A stretch of DNA of 64,000 bases from positions 64,001-128,000 of the forward strand of contig BTVJ01000004.1 in the NCBI GenBank assembly GCA_045863395.1, written 5' to 3'. Of the stretch, positions 4,826 to 14,448 are shown one piece after another. The notes under the pieces were generated by a model. It saw only the letters and a list, made by a program, of their open reading frames with translations. It was not told the DNA's origin and did not search any database. This DNA is from Myxococcales bacterium (GTDB taxonomy: Bacteria; Myxococcota_A; UBA9042; JABWCM01; BTVJ01). Numbering within the stretch: the first letter of the stretch is position 1; each line of letters opens with the position of its first letter. The position numbers and the translations under genes are program-made.

Positions 4826-5090
4826 GGCGCACCGCGGCCCTGTCGCGACGGGCGTCGTGAACGGTGTACACCGCACTGCGCCAGATCCCCTGAGACCCGC
4901 TCGGTCAGAACGCCTCCACTCGCCAGCACAGGTACGCGAGGAGCGCATCGCTCACGAAGCCGATCACTTCATGCCAGAGGAAAGTCTTGCTCGGATTGTG
5001 CTTGCGGTCTCGCACCCCCGTGAGCTACCCTCGTCCAGTCCGTGACCCGGAGAGGTCGACTCGGCATACTCTCGAGGGGAGTTTGTCGCG

Positions 5091-5339
5091 ATGGGAATTC
5101 GACGATGCAGCTTCTGCAAGAAGCCCCGCGGCGCAGAGCTCGCCAAGATCTGCACATCCTGCGCCCAGGGCCGCACAGCAGACTCCTGGTGTGACTTCTG
5201 TAACAAGACGACCAACGGCGCGCCGGCCTGGATATGCTCCACGTGTGCCAAGGGACGCACCGGCGACAACTGGTGCGACTTCTGCAACAAGACCACGAAT
5301 ACGGTCGTTGCTCGTATTTGCGCTCGCTGCGCCGCATGA
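5091..5339 (+). CDS. 82-aa Cys-rich zinc-finger protein with six CxxC motifs in three 28-aa repeats (PHF5/Rds3-like spacing)
   Basis: GAGGGGAG RBS. CxxC at residues 6, 21, 34, 49, 62 and 77. The internal repeat WCDFCNKTTN occurs twice. Confidence 0.75.
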   Translation: MGIRRCSFCKKPRGAELAKICTSCAQGRTADSWCDFCNKTTNGAPAWICSTCAKGRTGDNWCDFCNKTTNTVVARICARCAA

Positions 5340-5365
5340 CCGCGAGTCGAGAGAGGAGATGATCG

Positions 5366-8299
5366 ATGTTGTCTGTCGACCAGCTTCGGCGACTGGAGTC
5401 CACCCGGGCCCTCCTGCCCAATTCGCTCGCAACCAGCCTGACCGGCGCACTCCTCGAGCGGGATCCTCGCTCGAAACTACGTGAAATTCTGCGGTTCTGC
5501 GAGTCATTGGCACGCTACCTGTGCGACCTGCTCAACTCGGCGTACACGATGCGCAAGGACACGGACCCGTCCATCGAAAGGGAGCTGCGCGCCAAGTCGA
5601 AGAAGGAGAAGACAGCGGGTCTGTCCTTCGGGGACCTCGTTGCATCACTGGCGGTGTTCAGAGGACGAATGACGGAGGAGATGGCGCTTCCTCAGATCAA
5701 GGTGATCCTCTCGGAACAGCTTCCTGGCGAGTGTCTCACGGCCATCAGGACCATCGAGATCATCATGGAAGCGACGGGCGATTTCGAGGTCCCCCCACAC
5801 AAGGTAGCCGCCTATGTCAAGAGACGGCTGGCCGAACGTGGGGCCGTCGGAAAGAAGAACATCACGGACCTCCTGTGGATGCTCGCAAGAGTCCGCAATG
5901 CCTTTCACCACCCGTCGGACGCGGGGGCCCGCGCTGCGGACTCGAGAGTCGACGCTCGTCAGGAGGCCGAGGCGCCCTCACCGGCGACCGGGAAACAGTG
6001 GTGGTCGGAGGCCATTGAGTTCTACGTCGCGCTAGTGGAGACGCTGCACCCGGCACTCGTGGATCTGCTCCTCTGGTCGCCCCTCGTCGCGCTGGTAGAG
6101 CAGTACGAGCTCGTCGAGACCTTGTCGCCATCCGTGTCGGTGGACGACGGGTTTCTCTCGACCGTAAGACGTAACAGCCCAAGTGCCGAGCTGCTGCTCG
6201 TGCCAAGCCAGATCCGAACGGACTCGCCGTTGGAATCCGGACAGCTCTGCGTCGCTGCTCGGACGGCCGATCCATCTCGACTCGAGCTTTGTGTCCGCGG
6301 ACTTCGGTATCCTGCGAGCCGGCTGGCGCGCACGGAACACCTCGCCATGTATCGCAAGGCATTCGTACGAGCGATCCTGGGCGACGCGGTCGTCGATGCC
6401 GCCGATGAGTCAGCACTGGAGGAGATTCGGGCTCAGGGCGACCTCACAGACGGTGAGGTAGCGGAGTGTCGTTCATCGGTTCTCCAACGCTGGCTCGCAG
6501 CATGTCCGACCTCGGAGCCGATCCAGAGCCTGGGCACAGACATCACACCGAGACCGAGCGACGCTCTGGAGCATTGGCTCTCAAGGGATACACCGGCAAA
6601 GTCCGAGAGTCCGGCAGCCCCTGGTGACGTAGTTGCGCAGGCAGCATCTCTCATGGGCCACGTCTGTGGTCTGGTATTGCGGTCCCTTCAGGACAACGGC
6701 GCCATGGGGCTCGAGGCTCTCGTTCGGAGCACGTCTGTCGAGGCCCTCGCGTTGGCCCGTGCTCTGCAGTGGCTCGTGGACCGTAAGCGGGTGACGAGCG
6801 CAGGCAGCACGCAACAGGGAAATGCGGCACGCACATACCAGCTCTTGGACCAGGCACACATCGACACATTCCGGTCCGTCCTCGTCGAGGTTGGACACGA
6901 GATTGACTCAGGGAAGGTGATCAGCGGCCAGGTCTGGCGTCTCATCAAGTTGACGGACTCACTCCTGAGAGATCTCGGACACACCGAGGATTTCGCCGAG
7001 CGATGGCGAGAGCTGGAGGAGCGCGCACTGTCTCAAACGGATCTGGAGGTTTCTGACACTACCGATGTAGACGAAGAGGCTGATCGCCTGGACCTCATGA
7101 TCGAGGGTACCGACGTCAGCGCAAAGCGCTTGACACATCTGGTGCGGCGGGCTTGGGAGCTCGTGTGCAACGACGACAGGATGGTAAGACAGGTGACATC
7201 CCCAGGCAGCGCCATACCGTTCAAGGTCGGTCGCAGCCGCTATTTCGCTCACAGTGCACCAGAGCACTCCAACGGCACCGCGTTTGCTTTGCCCGTCGAG
7301 TGTCTCTGCGGCGACACGGCGGTCTACTTCGAGTGCAACTGGAGTCGTCGCGAAGGTGTCTTCCACCTCATCGGATTTCTGGGGAGGTGCGGATTCCGCG
7401 CCGAGTCCGCCTCCGTTGGAGAGCAGGTCGTGCAGGTTGAACAGGCCGCGCCGGAGCCAGGCGACGAGTCCACGCGGTCACGGCCCGGCGGTGTGCAGCA
7501 AGCCCTTGGCGACGGCGATGGTCGGGGAGTTGCGATTCTGCTGACGGACGGTGAGGAGCTCGATATTCGCGGCCGCAACGTTCCGCGCTTTCTGGGCTCG
7601 CTTCTGCGCTGGCTCGTGGACAATGATCTGATTCATGAGCAGGTGCATGGTGAGCCACTGCTTCCGTTTCAAAGCGGCAGAGTGCGAAACTTCGTCGCGC
7701 TTGCGCCGTTTCACCAGGACGAGACGCCATTCCAACGCCCGGTGGAGTACCAGGGACTCTACATGGAGGCGTCTCAATCATGGGAATCGGCGCTGGAGTA
7801 CTCGAAGCGCCTGCTCGACAGACTCAGGCTCGACTGTCGTGTCCTGGTGGATGATTCGCGACTGCCGCTCATGGTCCGTGTGCGCGATGGCGCGCCCATC
7901 GAAGGGGAGAACGTTCGCGATTTGTTCGTTGCGGCATGCCAGTATCTGGTCGAGTCCCAGAATGCATCCCGAGTACCCGTTCCACTTGCGAGCGGCACGA
8001 AGCGGTACATCATGTCCGAAACTCCGGTTCATCCAGCCGGCAACGCATTCAGCAGTCCGGTCCAGATTGATCTCAACGGGCGTCTCGTATACTGCGAAGC
8101 CAACGTAAGCAGAGCGAGCGCGCTGTCCTATGTCGTCAAGCTTTTGGAGTCCACTGGCACCATCATCGTCGATGCCCAGGGCCACAATGCGCTACAGGAA
8201 GCACTGGGCGCTGCGTCCTCGGGCGAGGGGCCCGACGTCCATAGCAGTGCATTGGACAGTCTGGGAGACGCAATCAGCGAGGCTGGAGCGACTCTCTGA
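5366..8299 (+). CDS. 977-aa multidomain protein: HEPN-like N-terminus, TerB-like segment, wHTH, three tandem SeqA-C-like repeats; putative defence protein
   Basis: RBS GAGAGGAG. RNAFHH motif at 5894-5911. Three C-terminal repeats of pattern P(F/L)xxGxxRx(F/I)xxxxPxHxxxxxFxxPV...YxExxxSxxx(A/G). Codon usage is visibly less GC3-rich than the flanking genes. Confidence 0.8.
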   Translation: MLSVDQLRRLESTRALLPNSLATSLTGALLERDPRSKLREILRFCESLARYLCDLLNSAYTMRKDTDPSIERELRAKSKKEKTAGLSFGDLVASLAVFRGRMTEEMALPQIKVILSEQLPGECLTAIRTIEIIMEATGDFEVPPHKVAAYVKRRLAERGAVGKKNITDLLWMLARVRNAFHHPSDAGARAADSRVDARQEAEAPSPATGKQWWSEAIEFYVALVETLHPALVDLLLWSPLVALVEQYELVETLSPSVSVDDGFLSTVRRNSPSAELLLVPSQIRTDSPLESGQLCVAARTADPSRLELCVRGLRYPASRLARTEHLAMYRKAFVRAILGDAVVDAADESALEEIRAQGDLTDGEVAECRSSVLQRWLAACPTSEPIQSLGTDITPRPSDALEHWLSRDTPAKSESPAAPGDVVAQAASLMGHVCGLVLRSLQDNGAMGLEALVRSTSVEALALARALQWLVDRKRVTSAGSTQQGNAARTYQLLDQAHIDTFRSVLVEVGHEIDSGKVISGQVWRLIKLTDSLLRDLGHTEDFAERWRELEERALSQTDLEVSDTTDVDEEADRLDLMIEGTDVSAKRLTHLVRRAWELVCNDDRMVRQVTSPGSAIPFKVGRSRYFAHSAPEHSNGTAFALPVECLCGDTAVYFECNWSRREGVFHLIGFLGRCGFRAESASVGEQVVQVEQAAPEPGDESTRSRPGGVQQALGDGDGRGVAILLTDGEELDIRGRNVPRFLGSLLRWLVDNDLIHEQVHGEPLLPFQSGRVRNFVALAPFHQDETPFQRPVEYQGLYMEASQSWESALEYSKRLLDRLRLDCRVLVDDSRLPLMVRVRDGAPIEGENVRDLFVAACQYLVESQNASRVPVPLASGTKRYIMSETPVHPAGNAFSSPVQIDLNGRLVYCEANVSRASALSYVVKLLESTGTIIVDAQGHNALQEALGAASSGEGPDVHSSALDSLGDAISEAGATL

Positions 8300-8458
8300 G
8301 GCGAGCGGGCTCGGACCCGTGCGAGGGTCTCTGTGTTGTGACGTCTCGTCAGGCGAGGAGCGCGCAATCGGTGGCGTAGACGCGCTGTGGCGTTGGGTGC
8401 CCCCTGACCCGCCGCGGTCCTCGTGGGCCGGGATCACGACGCCTTGGCATGCCACGGA

Positions 8459-10141
8459 TCAGAGCGTCTCCTCCCGCCCGAACAGCGGCGCCAGGAGCAC
8501 CACGCCGGCGCAGCCGACCACGTTGTACCAGAGGAAGCCGACGTCGCTCAGGAAGAACATCGCCAGCACGAGGGCCTCGGAGAGGACCGCCGCCCAGAAG
8601 ACGCCGGCGGCGCGGACCCGCTTGAGGAAGAAGGCGGCGAGGAAGATGCCGAGGATGGTGCCGTAGAAGAGGGAGCCGAGGATGTTGACGGCCTGGATGA
8701 GGTTGTCGATGAGCGAGGCGAAGGTCGCAAACGCGATGGCGAGGAGCCCCCACCCCACGATGAAGACCTTGGAGACGCGCAGCGTGTGGGCCTCGTCGGC
8801 GTCTGGCCGGAAGGAGCGCTTGTAGAAGTCGATGGCGGTGGTGGTGCCCAGCGCCGACAGCTCGCTCGCCGTCGACGACATGGCCGCCGACAGGATCACC
8901 GCGACCAGCAGCCCCACCACCCCGATGGGGAGGAACTTCATCACGAAGCTCAGGAAGACGTAGTCCGTGTCCTTGGTCTCGGCCCCGGGCACCGCGCGGG
9001 CGATGATCGCCCTCGCCTTGGCGCGCAGCTCCACGTCCTGCGCGGAGAGCTCCCGCATGGACGCCTTCGCCGTCGCCGCCGCCTCCTCGTCACCCGCCCT
9101 GCGCGCGCCGAGCCAGGTGTCCACCGCCGCGCGCTTGACCTGGAAGATGCGCGCGTGGGCGGCCTCCACCTCCGCCAGCTCCGGCCCATGAGAGGTCGCC
9201 GCCGCCTGGGCCCGCGCGGCCTCGTTGAAGAACACCGGCGGCTCCACGAACTGGTAGAACACGAACACCATGACCCCGATGAACAGGATGAGGAACTGCA
9301 TGGGGATCTTGAGCAGCCCGTTGAACAGGAGCCCGAGGCGCGCCTGGGCGATGGAGCGCCCGGACAGGTAGCGCTGCACCTGGCTCTGGTCGGTCCCGAA
9401 GTAGGCGAGCGCGAGGAAGAGCCCCCCTGTGATCCCCGACCAGAAGGTGTAGCGGCTGTCGAGGTCCAGGCTGAAGTCGATGGCGTTCATGCGGCCGAAG
9501 GCCCCCGCCACCTGGACCGCCTCGCCGAAGGAGACGTGCTCCGGCAGGTGGAGCACCACCATGACCAGCGCCGCCACCATGCCGCCGAGCATCACCACCA
9601 TCTGGTGCTTCTGGGTCTGGCTCACCGCCTTGGTGCCGCCGGTCACCGTGTAGACGACGACCACGAGGCCGATGGCCACGTTGGTCACGTCCAGGGGCCA
9701 GCCGAGGATGGTGGAGAGGATGATCGCCGGCGCGTAGATGGTGATTCCCGCGGCCAGGCCTCGTTGAATCAGGAAGAGAAACGCAGCGAGCTGGCGGGTG
9801 CGCTTGTCGAAGCGGCTCTCCAGGAACTCGTAGGCCGTGTAGACCCGCAGCCGGAAGTAGCGGGGCACCACCACCGCGGACAGGATCACCATGGCGATGG
9901 GCAGCCCGAGGTAGAACTGGACGAAGCGCATGCCGTCGTCGTAGCCCTGCCCCGGGGTGGACAGGAAGGTGATGGCGCTCGCCTGGGTCGCCATGACGCT
10001 CAGGCCGACGGTGTACCAGGGCAGCTCGTTGTCGCCGCGCAGGTAGCCCTGCACCGTCGCCACACGGCGCGTCTTCCAGGCCCCGTAGGCGACGATGCCG
10101 AAGACCGTGCCCAGCATCACCGCCCAGTCGAGGGCGCTCAC
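8459..10141 (-). CDS. Sodium:solute symporter (SSS family)
   Basis: Motifs SVMATQASAITF, YEFLESRF, GTDQSQVQRYL and AAMSS. About 13 TM helices. Confidence 0.95.
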   Translation of the reverse strand: MSALDWAVMLGTVFGIVAYGAWKTRRVATVQGYLRGDNELPWYTVGLSVMATQASAITFLSTPGQGYDDGMRFVQFYLGLPIAMVILSAVVVPRYFRLRVYTAYEFLESRFDKRTRQLAAFLFLIQRGLAAGITIYAPAIILSTILGWPLDVTNVAIGLVVVVYTVTGGTKAVSQTQKHQMVVMLGGMVAALVMVVLHLPEHVSFGEAVQVAGAFGRMNAIDFSLDLDSRYTFWSGITGGLFLALAYFGTDQSQVQRYLSGRSIAQARLGLLFNGLLKIPMQFLILFIGVMVFVFYQFVEPPVFFNEAARAQAAATSHGPELAEVEAAHARIFQVKRAAVDTWLGARRAGDEEAAATAKASMRELSAQDVELRAKARAIIARAVPGAETKDTDYVFLSFVMKFLPIGVVGLLVAVILSAAMSSTASELSALGTTTAIDFYKRSFRPDADEAHTLRVSKVFIVGWGLLAIAFATFASLIDNLIQAVNILGSLFYGTILGIFLAAFFLKRVRAAGVFWAAVLSEALVLAMFFLSDVGFLWYNVVGCAGVVLLAPLFGREETL

Positions 10142-13578: not shown

Positions 13579-14448
13579 TCATGGCACGAGCCACGCTTCG
13601 AGCTGCTCCCAGGTCCACCCGGTCCCCTGCACGAACATGGCCCGCGCCATGCCCGCATGGACGAAGCGCTCGTCGCCGAGATCGAAGAGATCCTCCAGGA
13701 TCGGCAGGAGGCGCCCCCGCAGCTCGGGGTCCGCCAGGCCCAGCCCCAGCACCTCGTTGAGCTGTGCCAGCTTGCGCTCCACCCGGGCTGCCTTCTCCAG
13801 GCGGGAGGCCACGACGCTCGGCCGGTCCAGGCCGCAGACGCGAATGGTCTCCGCCCCATGCTCGCTGCCCGCCAGCGGGCGGACCGCGCCGCCTCCAAGA
13901 AACTCGAGGTGCTGCGCCGGATCGTGCCGCCCGAACGGGTCGAGGAGCAGCGGGTCCTCCACGGCCTCGTCGCCGGGTGCCGGCCGGGCGGCGCGCCCAC
14001 CCGCCACCGGGAAGAGGGCATTCTTCCACGACTGGTTGCACAGACCGCACGACACCAGGTAGTTGTCCCAGGAGTAGGCGAGCCACCAGTATCCGCTGTC
14101 CCAGGTCCCGACCTTGGGCGGCTTGCCGAACGACCGCCCCGCCGTGTTGTTGAGGCTCTGACGCTCTCTCCCCGGCTTGAGCAGCGTGAAGATGGCGGTC
14201 TTCGGGCGGTAGTGCTCCACGTCCCCGTGGTCCGTCAGGAGCCGCTCGCAGTAGCCGCACTTGCGGTGCTGCCGCTCGGCGAAGTGCTCCTTGACCCCTT
14301 CCCCCCACGCCGCGTTGGCCTTCAGGAAGTCGGCCACGCCCTTCCAGTCCCCGACGGTCCCCAGCGCCTCCGCCGCCTCCCGCAGCGTCTTCACCCGCAG
14401 CTCGAAGTCCGCCCTCCCCCCGGTGGGTCGCGCGCTGAACCGCAGCAT
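13579..14448 (-). CDS. HNH endonuclease, Septu PtuB / retron-effector HNH-like
   Basis: KCGYCE...DVEHYRPK...YWWLAYSWDNYLVSCGLCN...KNALFP...LLLDP. Starts 2 bp after the ATPase stop. Confidence 0.85.
   Translation of the reverse strand: MLRFSARPTGGRADFELRVKTLREAAEALGTVGDWKGVADFLKANAAWGEGVKEHFAERQHRKCGYCERLLTDHGDVEHYRPKTAIFTLLKPGRERQSLNNTAGRSFGKPPKVGTWDSGYWWLAYSWDNYLVSCGLCNQSWKNALFPVAGGRAARPAPGDEAVEDPLLLDPFGRHDPAQHLEFLGGGAVRPLAGSEHGAETIRVCGLDRPSVVASRLEKAARVERKLAQLNEVLGLGLADPELRGRLLPILEDLFDLGDERFVHAGMARAMFVQGTGWTWEQLEAWLVP

Follow-up and report, generated by a model that had tools for sequence, protein, structure and literature searches.

PHF5A, a core protein of the U2 snRNP, lines the branch-point pocket against which splicing modulators are directed (PMC5458519). 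PHF5A and Rds3 bind three zinc ions through 12 Cys, with one knuckle divided between the termini; an initial annotation of the DNA studied here had described them in this way, in agreement with PMC7614390 and PMC5458519. The portions of the literature dealing with Rds3p describe it as permuted treble clefs (PMC4506424, PMC4999995) and as three GATA-like fingers (PMC7614390, PMC4999995), and an excerpt of PMC9695063 places the core of its knot at residues 21-74 of 2K0A. PHF5A/Rds3 are represented by Pfam family PF03660 and PDB entries 5SYB, 5ZYA, 2K0A, and 5GM6.

An 82-aa protein encoded in the window (the whole stretch of 64,000 nucleotides that was analyzed; Table 1) resembles these proteins in having twelve Cys in six alternating knuckles, a similar motif ahead of each B knuckle, and spacers similar to those of PHF5A (11, 3, 12, 8, and 10). 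Its Cys residues lie at positions 6, 9, 21, 24, 34, 37, 49, 52, 62, 65, 77, and 80, which gives CxxC spacers of 11-9-11-9-11 and an exact period of 28 residues; this layout and the three copies of A-x-I-C-x-x-C (A18, A46, and A74) are as first annotated. The knuckles follow the order A-B-A-B-A-B, where A is C-D/S-F-C and B is A-x-I-C-x-x-C, and identities between the repeats amount to 13/28, 9/22, and 15/22. In contrast to PHF5A/Rds3, all six CxxC are intact with no knuckle split across the termini, the repeats are regular, a terminal stem and a basic C-terminal helix are missing, and the protein is bacterial and encoded on a mobile islet. The chain ends two residues past Cys80 and has no signal peptide, and a six-frame scan of the genome (8.77 Mb) finds the six-knuckle pattern only once. 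Strain variants were seen within the ORF at 5176 and 5324 in four runs; no Cys is affected, and one of the two alters a variable residue while the other is silent.

Table 1. Positions of the 82-aa gene, its islet, and nearby features in the window
Feature	Position	Strand	Remarks
Diverged copy of symporter gene 3' end, islet left boundary	4905..4982	-	72% over 78 nt
Low-GC two-gene islet	4983..8458	.	GC 0.623 vs flanks 0.721, 0.715; genome 0.709
82-aa 12-Cys three-repeat protein (family 1; P0001)	5091..5339	+	ATG-to-TGA ORF
977-aa protein, family unassigned	5366..8299	+	Begins 26 nt downstream of 82-aa gene
3' end of intact sodium:solute symporter gene, islet right boundary	8459..8536	-	Gene 8459-10141, Pfam SSF
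289-aa ORF, two CxxC motifs	13579-14448	-	No Pfam match above cut-off

A search with the single sequence returned four relatives, an exhaustive scan across 1.84 billion representatives brought up 12 matches (five of them full-length relatives), and a profile search yielded 26 clusters at 90% identity from 218 candidates; these proteins are referred to here as family 1. Alignment A4 holds 34 family 1 rows, with P0026 (long N-terminal extension), L012, L014, and duplicates left out. All 12 Cys are invariant in 34/34 sequences, and the three repeats are likewise constant in all of them; the terminal tails measure 3-5 and 1-3 residues, too short for a signal peptide. The initial annotation would have been undermined by an unconserved ORF; because of the 26 clusters and the invariant Cys, the ORF is not a chance one. 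Spacers of 12-9-11-9-11, found in 30/34 sequences, are the family norm, and the exact period of 28 is peculiar to the window member. Family 1 proteins have 82-90 residues, are basic (charge +3 to +9), and retain aromatic residues beside every A knuckle, with no evident catalytic motif. The source genome (GC 0.709, 18 MYXO-CTERM matches) is one of 4/401 genomes of its phylum in which family 1 is present; a further Myxococcales record (L005), from a genome of the same class, carries the family, which points to Myxococcota as the phylum. Family 1 was not found in viral contigs. The stretch was detected in wastewater, sludge, and aquatic metagenomes. Two records, L003 and L004, are labelled Enterobacterales and Bifidobacterium breve, at odds with the GC content and phylum placement of the same contigs.

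The two genes of the islet have GC3 values of 0.75 and 0.71, whereas two genes in the flanks reach 0.90 and 0.95. No integrase is evident among the islet genes. Because a diverged repeat of the symporter 3' end bounds the islet on its other side, this 3' end is the probable insertion site. The 82-aa and 977-aa genes are probably co-transcribed, judging from their arrangement. The 977-aa protein has no match in Pfam, PADLOC, or NCBIfam, and homologs at 22-31% identity are encoded close to family 1 genes in L004 and L007 (also L008). Its ESM Atlas structure neighbors are weak (TM by query <=0.22), several being restriction-associated; the weak resemblance to restriction-associated domains lies in its C-terminal half. 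The 289-aa ORF may encode a protein resembling an HNH nuclease.

At 12 distinct family 1 loci, a KAP NTPase gene adjoins the family 1 gene in four (L001, L002, L003, and L014; assigned by Pfam at two loci and by homology at the remaining two, with L001 and L002 from the same genome), and a gene like that of the 977-aa protein and/or a gene for a ~750-aa protein with a CorA-like end is found in another four (the window, L004, L007, and L010). A divergent Card1/CARF-like nuclease is encoded beside family 1 in L005. Partial profile matches of neighbors at loci other than the window include PifA/QatA-like, CorA-like, CARF-nuclease, and PDC-S11, suggesting that family 1 neighbors in part resemble defense genes, with no named system matched. 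The CorA-like C-terminus (PADLOC E 9e-6) occurs in the ~750-aa proteins of L007:3686-5920, L004:6239-8554, and L019:10742-12955 (G000:C32), whose N-terminus we take to be DHH-phosphoesterase-like; the source genome has a copy of this gene on a different contig, where its neighbors resemble kinase, phosphatase, and vWA genes.

Family 1 may tentatively be viewed as a basic binding module with three-fold symmetry and no catalytic activity, acting as sensor or adaptor within small islets of phage defense or conflict; its most likely ligands would be nucleic acids, nucleotide signals, or protein trimers. That the gene instead rides along on mobile islets and has no part in defense, encoding for example a zinc/redox stress protein, is only a little less likely. 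Neighbors do differ among loci, no defense-like gene is present at 3/12 of them (L011-L013, all short contigs), and the 82-aa protein matches no PADLOC or NCBIfam family of known anti-phage components at E<=0.1 (the same holds for the 977-aa protein). However, the stop of the KAP NTPase gene overlaps the family 1 start in L001, L002, and L003, and the same two unassigned neighbor families reappear, in varying gene order, in L004, L007, and the window. The predicted binding-module role is favored over a passenger or metal-stress role.

With respect to the fold, two models of the 82-aa protein (pLDDT 84.7 and 85.1; pTM 0.67-0.68) were compared with 48,161 chains of known structure, a check suggested at the outset, and for both models PHF5A and Rds3 rank as the top two, aligned over residues 8-82. 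A PHF5 profile match, likewise suggested as a check, was seen (PF03660, 16.8 bits, E 0.0083), but it falls below the gathering cut-off of 26.7. PHF5 ranks third in Pfam after B-box (PF25287, 25.5 bits) and the double zinc ribbon DZR_2 (PF18912, 21.2 bits), both being partial, repeated matches below 27; the best PHF5 E value among 15 family 1 members is 0.00052. The family 1 profile finds PHF5A at E 0.3, with C2H2 arrays ranking above, and in one ungapped segment family 1 matches PHF5A from shortly before Cys11 through Cys26. Direct sequence evidence linking family 1 to PHF5 is, on these figures, weak.

A second bacterial family provides a bridge. A PF03660 search of the 401 phylum genomes gave 11 matches, one of them above the cut-off (L035:1222-1584, G389:C306); this 120-aa protein combines a twin-arginine-like signal with three repeats of 29 aa, ordered B-A-B-A-B-A. 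Its mature part (P0048) scores 33.4 bits on PHF5, again above the cut-off, and ranks Rds3 first in a PDB search (E 0.006), with matches at non-Cys positions as well, including the segment preceding the last ligand of Rds3. Searches with P0047/P0048 gathered 152 clusters from 155 candidates (family 2), of which the 120 listed were used for counting. Among those 120, a precomputed PF03660 match is present in 105, exact 8/13 spacers in 99, the order B-A-B-A-B-A with a period of 29 in 99, an N-terminal extension in 117, and a twin-arginine motif in 60; the 12 with named hosts come from Myxococcales, Bacteroidia, Planctomycetia/Thermoguttaceae, and one Pseudomonadota MAG. The PHF5 cut-off is passed by 5/8 distinct family 2 proteins tested, and a profile of 80 rows finds Rds3 (E 0.0018) and PHF5A (E 0.0044), with one C2H2 array ahead (E 0.00017). 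At least four members have seven knuckles, with A at both ends, and in P0114 and P0120 an A knuckle is split, its second Cys opening the chain and its first closing it, as in the eukaryotic proteins; other members of both clusters show the same layout. At the position of PHF5A Tyr36, a residue of the branch-point pocket, Trp is found in 336/343 family 2 repeats and mostly Thr in family 1. Within the phylum, strong family 2 matches occur in 5/401 genomes, plus one weak match, and none was found in the source genome. By sequence, family 2 is clearly related to PHF5A/Rds3 and is the stronger result, tying the fold to bacteria.

Families 1 and 2 each repeat an A/B knuckle pair three times and share a phylum, whereas family 1 differs in its A-B-A-B-A-B order and, in A4, in having neither an N-terminal extension nor a twin-arginine signal. 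Aligned with hhalign, they give 92.9% over 64 columns in a B-on-B register (33.9% for a single sequence). The family 2 profile scores family 1 at a mean of 31.4 bits, compared with 16.6 for Cys-fixed shuffles, and 30/34 family 1 sequences outscore all 20 of their own shuffles, a comparison that has no composition correction and in which shuffling destroys periodicity. In a stricter version, limited to one repeat unit with Cys unscored, 53/3000 shuffles reach or exceed the real score. Taken together, these comparisons lend moderate support to kinship. Convergence, in which family 1 would have arisen by separately triplicating a ClpX-like treble-clef half-unit and PHF5 would be kin to family 2 alone, would accord with this modest single-unit similarity, with the differing linker lengths of the two families, and with weak zf-C4_ClpX matches in 9/15 family 1 members. 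It is nevertheless improbable, since both families conserve five positions other than Cys in the same register (Ala -3 and Ile/Leu -1 before B, Gly +3 and Asp +7 after B, and Lys +2 after A) and the ungapped match to the N-terminal segment of PHF5A is also compatible with descent. As in the GATA-like fingers of Rds3, each predicted site pairs a knuckle with a helix-start CxxC; unlike in GATA-like or ClpX-type fingers, the halves of a site would come from different repeats, and the 11-residue spacer of the 82-aa protein appears too short for their usual hairpin. Also improbable is the absence of any triquetra, with three independent zinc fingers (B-box, double-zinc-ribbon, or treble-clef) or a metallothionein-like metal buffer in its place, given the leading rank of PHF5A and Rds3 over nearly the whole chain, a pTM that fits a single compact domain, and the three-repeat length with short tails, constant among the 34 aligned sequences, that a closed ring predicts.

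Because the fold matches add to the moderate sequence support for kinship with family 2, common ancestry is given a probability of about 0.75: the 82-aa protein would be a distant member, cytoplasmic and circularly permuted, of a PHF5/Rds3-like superfamily in prokaryotes. It lies outside PHF5 as strictly defined and is probably a new permutant with the same fold and ancestry. The fold matches and the family 2 link thus support the symmetric, circularly permuted prokaryotic relative or analogue that the initial annotation had suggested. In the proposed mechanism, triplication of a two-knuckle CxxC unit (A then B) would have produced the three-repeat protein, with each of three zinc ions held by knuckles i and i+3 (Cys6/9 with 49/52, 21/24 with 62/65, and 34/37 with 77/80), a pairing derived from PHF5A (PMC5458519) and the colinear match. 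The three structural zincs would close a triangle with three similar faces, around which the chain would wind twice. The ring would open after B3 in the 82-aa protein and after A3 in most family 2 members; in PHF5A/Rds3 and a subset of family 2 the opening would fall within an A knuckle. Since the Rds3p knot core maps to residues ~17-76 of the 82-aa protein, any trefoil formed there would be shallow, with a C-terminal tail of ~6 residues. More likely than not, the PHF5A/Rds3 knot derives from a prokaryotic zinc triquetra with three symmetric repeats, still present in at least two bacterial families and in three ring openings (after B, after A, and inside A). In this series a knot would arise by triplication and be deepened by circular permutation, and family 1 would serve anti-phage islets as a sensor with three-fold symmetry. 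The direction of this descent is drawn from symmetry and not from a tree.

If the symmetric bacterial relatives are genuine, PHF5A would come off the list of eukaryotic inventions, and the bacterial series would offer a natural system for knot formation and deepening; at 82-90 residues, family 1 proteins should be easily expressed, making fold, zinc pairing, and knot depth directly testable. The family 2 part may already be visible in databases, as automatic annotation tags many members as PF03660. No paper on prokaryotic PHF5 relatives was found in a search mostly confined to literature outside subscription journals, and queries for 'PF03660' and 'PHF5 + archaea + eukaryogenesis' returned none. 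PHF5 is absent from three of the four supplement files of PMC12962969 and from the main text of 10.64898/2026.10.28.762692; the scope also included supplement rows of PMC9887622, its preprint, and PMC5091781, each in part.

Family 2 (P0047-P0167) is large, mostly secreted, and spread over several bacterial phyla; it includes a number of circular permutants, and His replaces a Cys ligand in 49/327 of its B knuckles. Two-repeat forms (P0144, P0153, P0161, and P0167) are either collapsed-repeat assembly artifacts or genuine shorter proteins. Five members with ~83-87 core residues and without an evident signal peptide (P0163, P0166, P0168, P0110, and P0139) may correspond to an 87-aa ESM cluster that includes Promethearchaeota.
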